Shown here piece after piece: positions 4,661-63,075 of a stretch of DNA of 64,000 bases. The position numbers were made by a program, and so were the translations under genes. The first letter of the stretch is position 1. Each line of letters begins with the position of its first letter. This DNA is from Escherichia phage BF17, in the sequence record MW822008.1; one strand, written 5' to 3'. The notes beneath the pieces were generated by a model. That model worked only from the letters and a program-made list of their open reading frames with translations. It made no database searches and was not told the origin of the DNA.

Positions 4661-5799
4661 CCCTTTTGCAAATATATGAAGATTTAATGCACTTATGTAA
4701 TACAAACGATGCATTCTTTTATGTGGATCATAAAAGTCCTGCTGGTGGCACGTATCGTGTATTCAGTTATCGTCTAGCATCATACACTGATTTCATGCAA
4801 CCAAATGCGTTGGAAACCCGTGGCTCTATGTGGGAAATTGATGAAGAAGGTGACATGATACGTTGTGCAGCACGTACAATGAAAAAGTTCTTCAATGCTT
4901 ACGAGAATCCTGCTACAATGTTCCCTGCTAACACCACATGCGATGACATTGCGGTAGTGATGCCTAAGTTGGATGGCTCGATCATCAGTACTTATCGTGA
5001 TAATGATGGTGAGATTCGTTGTAAATCACATACTGCATTGTATTCTGACCATGCGATTAACAGCACTCGACTTATTAACGAGAACCAGAATTTGTATCAG
5101 TACATCGACGAAGCGGAACGTTTAGGTTACACAGTTAATATGGAGTATACAAGCCCAGAGTACCGAATTGTATTACCATATCAGGTAGAACAACTGTTTG
5201 TACTGAACGTTCGTCATCGTGTGAGTGGTGAGTTGCTTTGTGGTAAAGCACTACGTGATAAGTTTCCATGTCTTGCACAGTACAGTACTAATATGACTGG
5301 AAAAGATATTCATCACACTTTTCCGGTACGAAATACCTTCCGTGAAAGCGTGGAGGAAGTTCATAAAATGCTTGATATTGAGGGTTTTGTGTGCATCCTA
5401 AATAATGGGACAATGTGTAAAATAAAGACTGACTGGTACAGTTCATTACATCTTACAAAAGATAGTATTATTATTGATTCTCATTTATATGAAGCAGTAT
5501 TAAATGGTTCAAGTGATGATTTAAAACAATTGTTCAGTACTGATGAATATGCTATGCAAAAGATATTAAGAATGGAACAATTGGTATTTTCGTGCTATAA
5601 TGCATTACAAGATGAAGTAGAAAGCTTCGTCAAGGAACACAAGCACTTGGAGCGAAAGGAATTCGCAATGAAGGTTCAGGAGTGTTTAACTAATGAACTG
5701 AATCGTCAGGGCTTGGCCTTTGCAATGTATAACAATAAGAAAGTTGATTACAAAGAGACTCTTATAAAATACATGAAAATTGTACTAAAGGATTTTTAG
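4657..5799 (+). CDS. rnlA: RNA ligase 1 (T4 RnlA-like)
   Basis: 380 aa; N-terminus, FFY, YRVFSY, LE.RG and KxDGS nucleotidyl-lysine motif align with T4 Rnl1 (recalled from memory). Confidence 0.85.
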   Translation: MTLLQIYEDLMHLCNTNDAFFYVDHKSPAGGTYRVFSYRLASYTDFMQPNALETRGSMWEIDEEGDMIRCAARTMKKFFNAYENPATMFPANTTCDDIAVVMPKLDGSIISTYRDNDGEIRCKSHTALYSDHAINSTRLINENQNLYQYIDEAERLGYTVNMEYTSPEYRIVLPYQVEQLFVLNVRHRVSGELLCGKALRDKFPCLAQYSTNMTGKDIHHTFPVRNTFRESVEEVHKMLDIEGFVCILNNGTMCKIKTDWYSSLHLTKDSIIIDSHLYEAVLNGSSDDLKQLFSTDEYAMQKILRMEQLVFSCYNALQDEVESFVKEHKHLERKEFAMKVQECLTNELNRQGLAFAMYNNKKVDYKETLIKYMKIVLKDF

Positions 5800-48721: not shown

Positions 48722-48750
48722 TTGACATAGAAAAAGTAATTATGTATAAT
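48722..48750 (+). promoter_or_regulatory. sigma70-type promoter
   Basis: TTGACA - 17 nt - TGTATAAT. Confidence 0.6.
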
Positions 48751-48751
48751 C

Positions 48752-48782
48752 AGAGAACTTCATATGGAGTTCTCTTTTTTTT
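48752..48782 (+). terminator. rho-independent terminator
   Basis: AGAGAACT/AGTTCTCT 8-bp stem then T8. Confidence 0.65.
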
Positions 48783-49949: not shown

Positions 49950-50561
49950 ATGAACAAATATCATGTTTACTATACGACAAAATTATCACTTCTTGAAGAA
50001 TTAAATCAACGAAGTACTAAGATGAAACGCTACACTTTAAATGGTATTACTTTTCGATATTTCCCACAAAAAGTTCTTACTTTTGTTAAGAATCCAAAAT
50101 GCGTGGCATGTGGGATTGAAGCTACTGAAGTACGCATTGAACGTTCATTATGTTCTGATCCAGTATATGGTAAACCACATTTAAATGTATATGCTGTATG
50201 TGGTCTTTATGAAGTTTTAATGACAGTTGACCATAATCATCTGGCATCTAAGGGTGGACCTGATTTAGAGTCAAACTTTAATACTATGTGCTCCAGATGT
50301 AATCAACTACGTTCGAATAAAACTGAAACAGTTGATGAGTTTCTTGAGAAAGTTAAAGGTCGTAATCTTCTCCAAGAACATATGAATAATTTCTTTAATG
50401 TACAAAAAAAGAAAAATAACATTGACAAGTCGAAACTACTAGAAGAACGTAGGTTACGTCAAGAATTATGGGAAACCGATCATCTATGGCATGTTCGAGA
50501 GTTTGGTCGTCATATGAAAGCTTTGAAAAAAGAACAGAAGAAATTGAATAAACATGATTGA
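49950..50561 (+). CDS. HNH endonuclease
   Basis: ORF 49905..50561 trimmed to ATG after upstream stop; DHNH ... N ... CSRCN motif with flanking cysteines. Confidence 0.6.
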   Translation: MNKYHVYYTTKLSLLEELNQRSTKMKRYTLNGITFRYFPQKVLTFVKNPKCVACGIEATEVRIERSLCSDPVYGKPHLNVYAVCGLYEVLMTVDHNHLASKGGPDLESNFNTMCSRCNQLRSNKTETVDEFLEKVKGRNLLQEHMNNFFNVQKKKNNIDKSKLLEERRLRQELWETDHLWHVREFGRHMKALKKEQKKLNKHD

Positions 50562-50574
50562 TATGATATTATAG

Positions 50575-50602
50575 GGACTTGAGTATTCAAGTCCTTTTTT
50601 TT
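50575..50602 (+). terminator. rho-independent terminator
   Basis: GGACTTG/CAAGTCC stem then T8. Confidence 0.65.
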
Positions 50603-58466: not shown

Positions 58467-58877
58467 ATGATTGAAATGGAAGGAACTCTGGTGTATGATC
58501 CAGATCGTGGCACTATGAAAAAGAAGAAGGACTTCTGGTTAGTACTACAACTTCCATTGCAGTTGGTTCGATACTACCAGTACTTCATCAGAACTAACTT
58601 ACATATTGATATTAAAGACCCACAATGGGGAGCACATGTCAGTATCGTTCGTGGTGAAGTGCCACCAAATCCAGAGTACTGGAAAAAGTACGATGGAATG
58701 AAAGTTAAGATTAAGTTCGATCCTTTCATCGAAGAAGTAAAAGACAATAAGAAACCTGGGTCATTCTTTATCATAGAGTTTGAAGATGATTTCATTGCAC
58801 AAATTCGTGATGAACTTGGTTTAGCATCTAAATATTTCAAATATCACATCACCATTGGTAGAACATACTACGATTAG
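58467..58877 (+). CDS. 2H phosphoesterase-family protein (two H-x-S/T motifs)
   Basis: 136 aa; GAHVSIV and KYHITIG motifs at the spacing expected for the 2H (LigT/CPDase) fold. Confidence 0.55.
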   Translation: MIEMEGTLVYDPDRGTMKKKKDFWLVLQLPLQLVRYYQYFIRTNLHIDIKDPQWGAHVSIVRGEVPPNPEYWKKYDGMKVKIKFDPFIEEVKDNKKPGSFFIIEFEDDFIAQIRDELGLASKYFKYHITIGRTYYD

Positions 58878-58900: not shown

Positions 58901-58928
58901 TTGATATAACTAAAAAGTATGCTATACT
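58901..58928 (+). promoter_or_regulatory. candidate promoter
   Basis: TTGATA - 16 nt - TATACT upstream of lysozyme-like gene. Confidence 0.35.
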
Positions 58929-59044
58929 ACTTAAATGTTCCAAAGAACAACTGAGTACTGTAGAAAGTCCAATGAGGCTTTTGCAAATGGCCTCTTTGCC
59001 CTCTTTGTGATTGCTCATTGTTAACAACCAACAAAGGAGGCGTT

Positions 59045-59971
59045 TTGAAAAAAGCGAAAAAAGCACTGAAAACTAAAATTGCCATAGGCGTGTTAGTTTC
59101 ATCAGCCCTATTCGCTGCGATTGGATTTTATGGTTTTTCTCAAAGTGATCGTGCATCATCATTAGACGAAAGTCAGGTGCATAATTTAAAACCACAAGTT
59201 ACGCAAATTCAAAAGCAGGAACTACCACAGGTATCAGTACCAAAAGCAGTTCCAAGCAGCGAGAAACATTATACGGTTCAACCTGGAGATAGTTATTATT
59301 CTATTGCACAGAAATTTAAACCTAAAAATGTACAGATTGAAGATTATGTCATTTTGTTGAAGAACATCAACTTAAATGCAACTCTTCATACTTCTCAGGG
59401 TATCTTTATCCCAACAAAAGAGGATTTGAAGAACGTATTGTTACCAGATGTGACTGTACTGTTTGATTATAAAGATCCAGAAATTGTCAATCACATCAAA
59501 GAAGCTGAAGGTTCTATTGAATTTCAGTCCAAGAACAAACGACGTTTACTTGGTGGGAAAGTTGGAGTTCCTTTCCACAATTCTAAATTTCATCCCTATA
59601 AGGACATGAAAGGTAATTATACAATTGGTTATGGGCATTATTTGGGTAAGAAAGATTCTGATGCAATGAAGTACAGAAACGGGATTACCAAAGCACAGGC
59701 CAACAAACTTTTAATGCAAGATATGAAAAGGACTTACGAGGACTTTACACTATTGATGCAGAAGAAAGATGCAGTTAATCTGACAAAAGAACAGCAGCGT
59801 ATCCTGTTTGAAATGTCATACACAATGGGCGTTGATAAGTTGGCAACATTTAACAAACTATGGAAAAGTGTTAAAATGGATAACCCTAAGAAATTCAAGA
59901 AAGAAATCATGAATTCCTTGTGGTATCGCCAAGTTACAAACAGAGCGGATTTGTTGTTAAGCTCACTCTAA
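59045..59971 (+). CDS. membrane-anchored LysM-domain lysozyme (T4 lysozyme-like, GH24)
   Basis: ORF 59018..59971; probable TTG start after AAGGAGG; N-terminal hydrophobic helix; LysM motif YTVQPGDSYYSIAQKF; catalytic region E...YKD..G.YTIGYGH like T4 lysozyme. Confidence 0.7.
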   Translation: MKKAKKALKTKIAIGVLVSSALFAAIGFYGFSQSDRASSLDESQVHNLKPQVTQIQKQELPQVSVPKAVPSSEKHYTVQPGDSYYSIAQKFKPKNVQIEDYVILLKNINLNATLHTSQGIFIPTKEDLKNVLLPDVTVLFDYKDPEIVNHIKEAEGSIEFQSKNKRRLLGGKVGVPFHNSKFHPYKDMKGNYTIGYGHYLGKKDSDAMKYRNGITKAQANKLLMQDMKRTYEDFTLLMQKKDAVNLTKEQQRILFEMSYTMGVDKLATFNKLWKSVKMDNPKKFKKEIMNSLWYRQVTNRADLLLSSL

Positions 59972-59986
59972 AAAGGTAGGTAAATT

Positions 59987-60319
59987 ATGCTAAATCTAGT
60001 TATCCAAGGTAATGTTGATATTACTCCAGCAATCAATGACGCAATTCATGCTGAAGCAAATGCACTAACGAAGTTTAGTGATTCTTCAGTACTGCATATT
60101 GGTGTTCATGTGAAGAAAGAGCATAAGAATCAATATTTCGTAACTTTAACATCAGGCGGTAAGAGTGTTACAGCCGATGATGCAGATTTATACAAAGCAA
60201 TTGGTGATTCATTTGAAAAAATGGAAACTGTCTTAGGTAAAGACAAAAGCATCAAATTGTATCGCCGTAACCACCCCGAACATCCAGTTCAAGAAGACTT
60301 GACTGAAGACGAAGAGTAA
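59987..60319 (+). CDS. hpf: ribosome hibernation factor / RaiA-like (S30AE family)
   Basis: 110 aa; I.GNVDIT, GG...A..DLY.AI pattern and acidic C-terminal tail resemble HPF/YfiA. Confidence 0.65.
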   Translation: MLNLVIQGNVDITPAINDAIHAEANALTKFSDSSVLHIGVHVKKEHKNQYFVTLTSGGKSVTADDADLYKAIGDSFEKMETVLGKDKSIKLYRRNHPEHPVQEDLTEDEE

Positions 60320-60327
60320 GATATAAT
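60299..60327 (+). promoter_or_regulatory. sigma70-type promoter
   Basis: TTGACT - 17 nt - TATAAT spanning stop codon of hpf-like gene. Confidence 0.5.
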
Positions 60328-60330
60328 AAA

Positions 60331-60358
60331 GGGACAGAGATTATTCTGTCCCTTTTCT
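60331..60358 (+). terminator. rho-independent terminator
   Basis: GGGACAGA/TCTGTCCC 8-bp stem then TTTTCTT. Confidence 0.65.
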
Positions 60359-60373
60359 TATGGAGTTTTAATT

Positions 60374-60790
60374 ATGAATTATGTTTGGGCAGATGTAGTA
60401 AAATCTCTCGTATCAACACATGATGTTGATTTACCAGATAGTCTGGTATTTAACAGATGGTACTATCCAAACCCAGAGGACTGTAACGTTGGAATTGGAT
60501 TTTTTATTAATGATAAATCTAATTTGTTTGGATTAATTGAAGATGAGACAAAATCCAACCTTATATTCTCGATTGAGTTGAATGCTGATCACATAAAATA
60601 CTACACCAATAAAATGGACGAAGACGATGGAGATGTTATAATCCCAGCAGAAATAGACGAAGCTTCATTTTTTCAGTTATCATTGATTTATGATCTATCT
60701 AACATTACTTATGATAATGTGAAAGACCTTTTTATATTGTACAATAAAATGTATAATTACTTTTTAAGACCTTTTTATATTGTACAATAA
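60374..60790 (+). CDS. hypothetical protein (3' end within tandem duplication)
   Basis: 138-aa ORF; last 7 codons supplied by second copy of 43-bp repeat. Confidence 0.5.
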   Translation: MNYVWADVVKSLVSTHDVDLPDSLVFNRWYYPNPEDCNVGIGFFINDKSNLFGLIEDETKSNLIFSIELNADHIKYYTNKMDEDDGDVIIPAEIDEASFFQLSLIYDLSNITYDNVKDLFILYNKMYNYFLRPFYIVQ

Positions 60791-60825: not shown

Positions 60826-61011
60826 ATGGAATATACCATATGTGTAATTGTATGTATCATAGCCTTACTCGCAGGAGTTGGTGTGATGATTTACTGTGAT
60901 GCGGAACCAAGTACTGAAGTAGGTACAACCATCACACTTAAACCTGGTGTTAAAATTAATGATACCTATTGCTACAATCCAAACACAAACCGCTATGAGA
61001 TTTGTTTATGA
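60826..61011 (+). CDS. small membrane protein
   Basis: 61 aa, N-terminal hydrophobic helix. Confidence 0.45.
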   Translation: MEYTICVIVCIIALLAGVGVMIYCDAEPSTEVGTTITLKPGVKINDTYCYNPNTNRYEICL

Positions 61012-61415
61012 GAACATTCAACATTGATTATATAATTGATTCGATTGCAGAACATATGAAAAACATAAGTAAAAACGAGCCTGGTTTTTACTTCAACTTA
61101 GATAAACTCCATCGCAATACCAATGTATCTAGTTTTAATCGTGCTAAGAAACTTTACATCCGTATACATAACCTTTGGTACAGTGACGATACGTTGATGA
61201 TAGATATTACTGTTGATGAAGACATAACATTAAGATACATTGACGATTTTAAATCAGATGATATTCGTGCTGGATCATTACCAATTGATGCTTCATATGA
61301 AGAATATCTGCAATACCAGTTCATTGATGACACATTTGGATTTGACTTTGATCTATATAATAGTATAATGAACGTATACCATATATACGAAAGGAATTTG
61401 AATGGACATTCGTAA
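61002..61415 (+). CDS. hypothetical protein
   Basis: 137-aa ORF. Confidence 0.5.
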   Translation: MFMRTFNIDYIIDSIAEHMKNISKNEPGFYFNLDKLHRNTNVSSFNRAKKLYIRIHNLWYSDDTLMIDITVDEDITLRYIDDFKSDDIRAGSLPIDASYEEYLQYQFIDDTFGFDFDLYNSIMNVYHIYERNLNGHS

Positions 61416-61824
61416 AATACCAAATTTCCACAGTACATTAAGGTTCTTTTCTGAACAAGAAATCAGTACTGAAAGACGTGGCTTGATTTCATACAATCAT
61501 CATCGTGTTATGTACACTAATCATTTCCAGGGTACAGTTCGTATTAAATTTCGTAATGCACTCGACGACAATGATGAATTGTTAATTTTACTACGAAAAA
61601 GTAAGATAGAATTGACATACGCAACTCACCATATTGAAAGTGAGTTGATGTGGCACACACTATCAAAAAAAGAAGGGTCATTACCAGTTGATGATAATGG
61701 ACCAGAAACACTTGATCAGTACATGTTCATTGATGATACATTTAGTATTGACTATCCATCATTTCAGTGTATACTAGCTATACATAAAAAATATTACGAC
61801 CGTCTACGTGACAGATTAATTTAA
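61402..61824 (+). CDS. hypothetical protein
   Basis: 140-aa ORF. Confidence 0.5.
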   Translation: MDIRKIPNFHSTLRFFSEQEISTERRGLISYNHHRVMYTNHFQGTVRIKFRNALDDNDELLILLRKSKIELTYATHHIESELMWHTLSKKEGSLPVDDNGPETLDQYMFIDDTFSIDYPSFQCILAIHKKYYDRLRDRLI

Positions 61825-61959: not shown

Positions 61960-63075
61960 ATGAAAAAGTATTTGGTTGGCGGTTATACGAGAGATCGTTT
62001 AATGGGCATCCGTGCAAAAGACAAAGATTATGTCATTGTCGGTGCATCCGAATCTGATATTAAGTACTTGCAAAGTATTGGTTATAAGCAAGTAGGTAAG
62101 GATTTTCCTGTGTATCTCAGCCCAGAGGGTAATGAGCACGCATTGGCACGTACTGAACGTAAAACTGGTACTGGTTACGGTGGTTTCGAAGTGAATACTA
62201 AAGGCGTAACACTGGAACAAGATTTGTATCGCCGTGACCTTACAATTAATGCAATTGCGTATGATCCAGTACTCCAGATTCACATCGACCCTTATGGCGG
62301 GAAAGCTGATATCAAGAACAAAGTACTACGACATGTATCAGAACACTTTAAAGAAGATCCATTGCGTGTTCTACGTTTGGCCCGTTTCGCTACACGTTAC
62401 TCAGACTTTACAATCCATGATGATACTATGACAATGTGTAAAGATATGGTTAGTACTGGTGAACTAGACCATCTAGTCCCAGATCGTGTTTTTGTTGAAT
62501 TCGAAAAAGCACTTTCTGAAGAAAACCCTTCCAAGTTTATCAAAACTCTGGTACAATTTGGTTATTACGAAAAGGCATTTACTACAGTTCCAGTTACCAA
62601 GAAACGTCTGGAATTAATTGATGCTATCGCTGCAAATTGTACAGAAGAATATAAACCATATTTCTTATGGACAGTACTTCTTGAAAATGAAGAAGTAAAT
62701 AATGATTCAGTACTTAACGGTTCCATTAAGGTTCCAGTTAAGTACGTGAAGTTTAGTAATTACATCAAGCGTTTCCGTGAAGATATTAAAACCTTCCGTA
62801 AGAAGACCCCAGTTGAAATGGGACAAATCTTACTGGATATGAATATCAAAAACAATGGTGGTGAAGATTTCCTTTACAAAGTACTGGAAAACTTCATTTT
62901 GAACAAAGAAATTGATTCTGATCTTGAAGATTTGATTATTAAAGTTTATGATCGTTATACTGATGTTGAATTACCTGATATTCAGCAGTTAGTGAAAGAT
63001 GGTGAACTCCAAACATCGGAGATTCGTGATTTTGTTGCTGAATTGCGTATTGAAGCAATCAAGCAAATGTTCTAA
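61960..63075 (+). CDS. cca: tRNA nucleotidyltransferase (CCA-adding enzyme, class II)
   Basis: 371 aa; GG.TRD..MG, DKD (catalytic Asp pair), RRDLTINA, DPYGG and EDPLRVLRLARFA motifs of the poly(A) polymerase/CCA family head domain. Confidence 0.8.
   Translation: MKKYLVGGYTRDRLMGIRAKDKDYVIVGASESDIKYLQSIGYKQVGKDFPVYLSPEGNEHALARTERKTGTGYGGFEVNTKGVTLEQDLYRRDLTINAIAYDPVLQIHIDPYGGKADIKNKVLRHVSEHFKEDPLRVLRLARFATRYSDFTIHDDTMTMCKDMVSTGELDHLVPDRVFVEFEKALSEENPSKFIKTLVQFGYYEKAFTTVPVTKKRLELIDAIAANCTEEYKPYFLWTVLLENEEVNNDSVLNGSIKVPVKYVKFSNYIKRFREDIKTFRKKTPVEMGQILLDMNIKNNGGEDFLYKVLENFILNKEIDSDLEDLIIKVYDRYTDVELPDIQQLVKDGELQTSEIRDFVAELRIEAIKQMF

Follow-up and report, generated by a model that had tools for sequence, protein, structure and literature searches.

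The window analysed here, a 64,000-nt stretch of the genome of Escherichia phage BF17 (MW822008.1), carries on its + strand, at 59987–60319, an open reading frame encoding a protein of the S30AE (HPF/RaiA) family. The frame starts with ATG and specifies 110 amino acids, beginning MLNLVIQGNVDITP and ending in DLTEDEE, with a folded domain of approximately residues 1–94 and a disordered tail of residues 95–110. A sequence-only reading of this DNA had placed a phage-encoded ribosome hibernation factor homolog at the same position, and the frame, its start codon, its length and its quoted sequence were all recovered, as was the acidic tail to which it had drawn attention. A Shine–Dalgarno-like AGGTAGG (59974–59980, + strand) lies 6 nt 5′ of the ATG, and the orthologs carry AAGGAAGGTGA at this position.

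The gene immediately upstream (59018–59971, + strand) encodes a 317-aa protein with an N-terminal hydrophobic segment followed by LysM and phage lysozyme domains. Only 15 nt separate it from the HPF-like gene, a terminator is absent between them, and the two genes belong to the same transcription unit. A sigma70-type promoter-like site with an extended −10 element (58901–58928, + strand; TTGATA-16-TGcTATACT) precedes the pair and is conserved in phage PBECO4. The leader between this site and the lysozyme start (58940–59017), which is near-invariant between the window phage and PBECO4, holds a GAGGC...GCCTC hairpin followed by T-rich sequence, and may therefore have a regulatory role, possibly as an attenuator.

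The unit is closed directly after the HPF-like gene by an intrinsic terminator (60328–60362, + strand) with an 11-bp stem, a 6-nt loop and the run UUUUCUU (−18.2 kcal/mol, z = −4.2), in whose stem phage EJP2 carries compensatory, covarying changes. The 3′ end of the gene also contains a near-consensus sigma70-type promoter for the next gene (60299–60327, + strand; TTGACT-17-TATAAT), with its −35 element inside codons D104-L105-T106 and its −10 element just past the stop codon, abutting the terminator hairpin. An equivalent layout is found in the phages Munch (TTGACA-17-TATAAT) and Hallingskeid (TTGACA-17-TACAAT). The Leu105 codon is TTG in every examined ortholog that has leucine at this position, whereas other conserved leucine codons vary; given the embedded −35 element, this invariance indicates that the conservation of ‘DLT’ is at least partly a constraint at the DNA level. 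The last four residues of the protein vary in sequence while their acidic charge stays constant, a pattern that would fit selection at the protein level on the end of the tail.

A compact module, in which a sigma70-type −10 element stands no more than ~0–3 nt ahead of an intrinsic terminator hairpin with its T-run, recurs at 60299–60362, 48722–48775 and 50544–50596 of the window and at ~4800–4860 of locus L004 and ~4795–4850 of locus L005. A transcript from the promoter of such a module would begin in the 5′ arm of the hairpin and thereby evade termination, and read-through from upstream would stop. Across positions 1–64000, the coding strand carries 17 sigma70 sites that agree with the consensus in at least 11 of 12 positions, and the opposite strand carries 1, against an expectation of ~1.4 per strand under a second-order Markov model (maximum 4 in 100 simulations); at a loose threshold, the total of sigma70-like sites across the window showed no enrichment. 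These 17 sites and the conserved promoter upstream of the operon are compatible with the use of host RNA polymerase, and the promoter sequences suggest transcription by a host-type holoenzyme. However, according to the Sharanji genome paper, the phages have an RpoD-like sigma factor as well, so that the timing of expression is not deducible from the promoters.

Further from the gene, the neighbourhood has a flavour of RNA repair and translation maintenance. A CCA-adding tRNA nucleotidyltransferase (61960–63075), a NUDIX hydrolase (63182–63595) and a glutaredoxin/NrdC-like protein (63585–63833) are encoded downstream, and the frame at 58467–58877 gives a sub-threshold match to 2H phosphoesterases (23.5 vs. 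27 bits). A macro-domain protein is encoded further downstream in PBECO4 and Munch, and an RNA ligase upstream in Hallingskeid; positions 458–1711 of locus L005 belong to the same set. Two adjacent, overlapping frames at 61002–61415 (137 aa) and 61402–61824 (140 aa) are paralogs (BLASTP E = 5e-9) that have in common a C-terminal GSLPxD...QYxFIDDTF motif and match no Pfam family; the frame at 60374–60790 has no detectable relation to this pair. tRNA genes were not found in the 64,000-nt window, and PADLOC and an anti-defence library gave no match.

The 110-aa protein matches the Pfam family Ribosomal_S30AE (PF02482) with E = 3.2e-10 and 41.0 bits, over the gathering score of 23.7, its residues 8–87 spanning positions 5–84 of the 88 in the profile. 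The NCBIfam equivalog models score it below their cut-offs: TIGR00741 (HPF/YfiA) gives 32.2 bits against a trusted cut-off of 40.9, and NF007780 (E. coli-type HPF) gives 18.8 bits against 125. In PHROGs, the protein is assigned to phrog_34864, for which no function is given, and weakly also to the S30EA family phrog_8990. PDB sequences searched with the protein and with a profile of its clade returned HPF/RaiA/pY chains only.

The AF2 model (pLDDT 76) shows a β-α-β-β-β-α fold, with strands at residues 2–8, 36–46, 49–56 and 59–65, helices at 14–30 and 68–85, and residues 90–110 disordered. In a Foldseek comparison with the PDB, the best 36 matches are all HPF/RaiA/pY proteins with TM scores up to 0.76, many of them solved on ribosomes, and no other family appears among these 36 at E < 0.005. 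The S30AE fold, on which the sequence-only reading had made its claim depend, is thus predicted. When the protein is aligned with RaiA and HPF of E. coli and a panel of 54 diverse S30AE proteins, G8, T13-x-A15-I16, D67-L-Y69-x-A71-I72 and K78 occupy signature columns that are 60–100% conserved, and the motifs singled out in the earlier reading fall at these columns. Each of the nine signature residues (G8, T13, A15, I16, D67, Y69, A71, I72 and K78) is invariant within the phage clade, as are the residues of the fold core. However, the stretch that had been likened to KLERQ reads KMETV, with the conserved Arg and Gln of the motif both replaced. Taken together, the PF02482 score, the restriction of the PDB matches to HPF/RaiA proteins and the dN/dS values of 0.12–0.27 given below place the match beyond chance, and the gene is a genuine HPF/RaiA (S30AE) homolog in an E. 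coli jumbo phage.

In its architecture, the phage protein is RaiA-like: its domain is short, and an RR motif leads into a disordered tail of ~16 residues with an acidic end. E. coli RaiA (pY/YfiA) has the same S30AE fold and a similar length (113 vs. 110 aa), has its RR motif where helix 2 ends, as the phage protein does, and continues for 17 residues after this motif, compared with 16 in the phage protein, to an end that is acidic in both. The two proteins are 23–27% identical (27% by BLASTP, E = 7e-5), and unlike RaiA, the phage protein lacks equivalents of R17, K/R23, K26, R83 and K91, is phage-encoded and lies in an operon with a lysozyme gene. The short HPF of E. coli (YhbH) has the fold and the signature core residues in common with the phage protein, but consists of 95 aa and has no tail. 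BLASTP of the single phage sequence gave no alignment with E. coli HPF, whereas with a profile of the clade, RaiA reached 23.5 bits and E. coli HPF 29.9 bits, and both were outscored by the N-terminal domains of long HPFs. Since BLASTP points to RaiA and the clade profile to HPF, the core was assigned to neither subfamily. The long HPFs differ in their C-terminal dimerisation domain and their length of ~180–200 aa, whereas the phage protein has a single Pfam domain within its 110 aa and is not of the long type; the stop codon and the terminator are conserved in all orthologs.

The window shares 96.9% identity with Escherichia phage vB_Ec-M-J and 86–89% with PBECO4 and 121Q, and represents an Asteriusvirus-type jumbo coliphage of the PBECO4/121Q group (~350 kb). 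The Asteriusvirus orthologs (PBECO4 gp039, 121Q gp533 and that of vB_Ec-M-J) occupy the same locus and are 75–99% identical to the window copy, which is a near-identical allele of them with no difference of substance. A word-indexed homology search returned close relatives only. When 1.84 billion representative proteins were searched exhaustively with a profile, only 59 matched at E ≤ 1e-3, and five of these reached E ≤ 1e-10. One match, P0014 (1605 aa, 125 bits over 29 weakly matched stretches), was treated as a repeat-inflated artefact of a tandem 53-aa repeat protein; this metagenomic sequence comprises ~30 tandem copies of the 53-aa unit without a stop codon, an odd, endless-repeat structure in itself.

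The nearest outgroup, P0015–P0018 (103–107 aa), comes from other ~350-kb enterobacterial jumbo phages, namely Salmonella phages Munch, 7t3 and SE_PL, Klebsiella phage fENko-Kae01 and Erwinia phage Hallingskeid. The nearest match outside these two phage clades, P0019, has no phage record of its own by tblastn, and a scan of IMG/VR found two loci, one of them phage 121Q itself, and thus gave no sign of a wider viral spread. The small clade to which the gene belongs is known only from ~350-kb enterobacterial jumbo phages. In Munch and Hallingskeid, the gene lies in a neighbourhood matching that of the window, with the lysozyme gene upstream and small ORFs, the CCA-adding tRNA nucleotidyltransferase, NUDIX and NrdC genes downstream, although the proteins are only 31–46% identical. 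Identity to host RaiA/HPF is only 23–29%, and the gene is thus no recent capture from the host but an old, vertically inherited component of this jumbo-phage group. Among eight Asteriusvirus orthologs, pairwise dN/dS over the whole gene is 0.12–0.27 with dS up to 1.8, indicating purifying selection on the protein, and the full-length copy is conserved in more than 30 isolates.

In four Salmonella-infecting Asteriusviruses, whose genomes are smaller (310–326 kb), the gene is present only in part. In the two examined, SD-15_S21 (L015 401–625) and SD-6_S16 (L014 371–523), in-frame internal deletions have reduced the product from 110 aa to 74 aa and 50 aa, respectively, and destroy the S30AE fold. 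Both ends of the gene, with the start and the C-terminal codons, remain intact in these phages, as do the embedded promoter and the terminator. As these phages are viable, the gene is dispensable at least in this Salmonella-infecting lineage.

How the protein might engage the ribosome was considered from its rRNA-contact residues. According to structural papers on bacterial hibernation factors, rows of basic residues on helix 1 and helix 2, two in all, touch 16S rRNA. In E. coli numbering, Lys23 and Lys26 contact the h44 backbone near m3U1498, and Lys80, Arg83, Lys87 and Lys91 are among the 16S rRNA contacts, with Arg83, at m4C1402, called the “single essential arginine” in one structural study. 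The same literature describes an aromatic residue at position 30 as a contact feature, and Arg95-Arg96 of RaiA as touching rRNA and uS7. In the 54 bacterial S30AE proteins, ten columns are at least 50% K/R, and the phage clade is basic at five of them (K29, K78, K85, K87 and R94) and also at R93. K78, K85 and K87 correspond to E. coli K80, K87 and K89, R93-R94 to RaiA R95-R96, and F30 retains the aromatic character of W30/Y30; the structural papers give all these positions as contacts to 16S rRNA or uS7. The other five columns are non-basic, being occupied by N17, E23 (a charge reversal), A26, T81 and I89; E23 and A26 are the equivalents of Lys23 and Lys26 on helix 1, T81 is the equivalent of Arg83, and I89 is that of Lys91.

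In the Munch clade, the equivalents of Lys23 and Arg83 are gone as well, whereas those of Lys26 and Lys91 are present. The Asteriusvirus clade has an invariant basic patch of its own (H41, K43, K44, H46, K47, K59 and K70), and varies most on the exposed outer face of helix 1. The lost basic contacts lower the confidence in canonical ribosome binding but do not exclude binding, because a Francisella study found that the core is conserved and the contacts are not, the contact residues varying widely among genuine bacterial RaiA proteins. Net charge and pI were dropped as a sign of lost rRNA binding, since the core of E. coli HPF is itself net negative, and the column-wise comparison was used in their place.

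The gene is already known as an annotation, and phage-encoded HPFs are a published class. RefSeq labels PBECO4 gp039 and 121Q gp533 as “HPF/RaiA family ribosome-associated protein”, orthologs in other records are called “sigma 54 modulation protein / S30EA” or “ribosome-associated inhibitor A”, and the Sharanji genome paper places its ortholog among translation-related genes. PF02482 proteins were described from Cronobacter phage GAP32 and rV5-like coliphages by Mizuno et al. (2019; PMC6375957); like the window protein, they are phage-encoded, ~105–111 aa long and found in large myoviruses. The rV5 HPF, which belongs to a different lineage and is the only phage HPF tested so far, was expressed in E. 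coli and was absent from 70S and 100S ribosomes after a high-salt wash, and 100S levels were unchanged. The authors found that the rV5-type proteins group with the HPFs of Gammaproteobacteria, as recently captured genes would; the window clade, in contrast, is deeply divergent and vertically inherited. The GAP32 protein (BFVD K4F6Q6) is a structural match to the window protein (E = 3e-7, 22% identity), and rV5-type proteins were not detected by tblastn with the window protein as query. For the Asteriusvirus protein itself, passing mentions in genome papers were found and no experimental or transcriptomic work. To this record, the present analysis adds the depth and synteny of the clade, an architecture like that of RaiA but with a changed contact surface, the promoter/terminator module at the 3′ end, and the deletion variants.

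The interpretation favoured here, to which we assign a probability of roughly 55%, is that the protein acts as a RaiA-type factor in the decoding channel of vacant host ribosomes, where it parks or protects the ribosomes or overrides host hibernation. Binding in the 30S decoding channel of vacant host ribosomes is the most likely mode of action that we infer. By analogy with bacterial HPF/RaiA, the folded domain would occupy the mRNA/tRNA channel where the 30S head meets the body, and the flexible tail, with its RR motif and acidic end, would run toward the RMF site as that of RaiA does. The tail would in this way favour inert 70S monomers over RMF/HPF-driven 100S dimers, and the payoff would be that spare host ribosomes are parked and protected, or host hibernation overridden, during the long infection of a ~350-kb phage. 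The family and fold matches, the retained K78, K85, K87, F30 and R93-R94, the RaiA-like tail, the purifying selection, the shared gene neighbourhood and the host-type promoters would count in favour of this reading. Several results tell against it, namely the five non-basic contact columns, the negative result with rV5 HPF, the shortfall against TIGR00741 (32.2 vs. 40.9 bits), the variable face of helix 1, the fold-destroying deletions in viable Salmonella phages and the conservation of ‘DLT’, which is confounded by the promoter. The proposal in the sequence-only reading that a phage copy could shut down or protect host ribosomes is likewise weakened somewhat, since half of the conserved basic residues that contact rRNA are gone and the rV5 HPF, from another lineage, did not co-sediment with ribosomes.

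The same losses can be read as a sign that the S30AE fold has been neofunctionalised off the ribosome, for instance to bind another RNA or a nucleotide signal in the manner of the dsRBD-like Acb4, a literature example of an HPF-like fold that serves as a nucleotide sponge. The lost or reversed basic residues of helix 1, the missing Arg83 equivalent, the clade-specific invariant cluster from H41 to K70, the absence of rV5 HPF from ribosome fractions (PMC6375957) and the RNA-repair-type neighbours (the CCA-adding enzyme, the weak 2H phosphoesterase match and the Hallingskeid RNA ligase) would all suit such a role. However, membership of PF02482 is clear at the sequence level, the strong fold matches are all HPF/RaiA proteins, PADLOC gave no match, half of the contact columns are retained together with the RR motif and the aromatic residue at position 30, and contact residues vary among genuine bacterial RaiA proteins too. 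Acb4 is absent from the 36 PDB fold matches at E < 0.005, the presence of its structure in the searched library being unconfirmed. A function off the ribosome is therefore considered doubtful, although it is the least improbable of the departures from the favoured reading. Weaker and more reversible binding, which the partly lost basic contacts would also fit, is the premise of an anti-hibernation decoy, in which weak or transient occupancy of the HPF/RaiA site and blocking of RMF by the tail would prevent 100S formation and keep ribosomes free for phage mRNAs, so that 100S formation triggered by the host upon starvation or defence-induced dormancy is averted. Mizuno et al. (PMC6375957) put forward such a role for viral HPF, the literature records an increase of RMF during DRT2 defence, and the RaiA-like tail is directed at the RMF site in homologs. 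Bacterial RaiA itself, however, inhibits translation, and the conservation of the tail is partly explained by the embedded promoter, so that a decoy is judged unlikely, and more so than a function off the ribosome.

The embedded promoter also bears on whether the protein has any function at all, since a decaying passenger could be retained only for the promoter and terminator at its 3′ end that serve the neighbours. The position of the conserved −35 element inside the last codons, and the loss of the fold in SD-6_S16 and SD-15_S21 with the gene ends and the promoter/terminator module kept, are what such a passenger would show. Nevertheless, the low dN/dS holds across the whole gene, more than 30 isolates maintain the full length, as do phages of other genera at 31–46% identity, and the fold-core residues are invariant, all of which make a functionless passenger very improbable.

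A bolder reading would regard the protein as an ancient jumbo-phage branch of HPF with a remodelled rRNA-contact surface, having lost the helix-1 lysines and the Arg83 equivalent and gained an invariant HxKKxHK patch, that is expressed from host-type promoters as a takeover factor. Such a factor would override the RMF/HPF/RaiA programme of the host or shield ribosomes from defence nucleases. We regard this reading as speculative, its chances lying between those of a function off the ribosome and those of a decoy; if true, it would constitute a viral counter-dormancy mechanism. The clade is suited to functional experiments, being conserved and under purifying selection, and its natural deletion variants offer ready-made controls. 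Ribosome hibernation is a central survival and dormancy response of bacteria, and dormancy is increasingly viewed as an anti-phage strategy. With a factor of its own that sets how host ribosomes hibernate, a phage would have a direct handle on this response.
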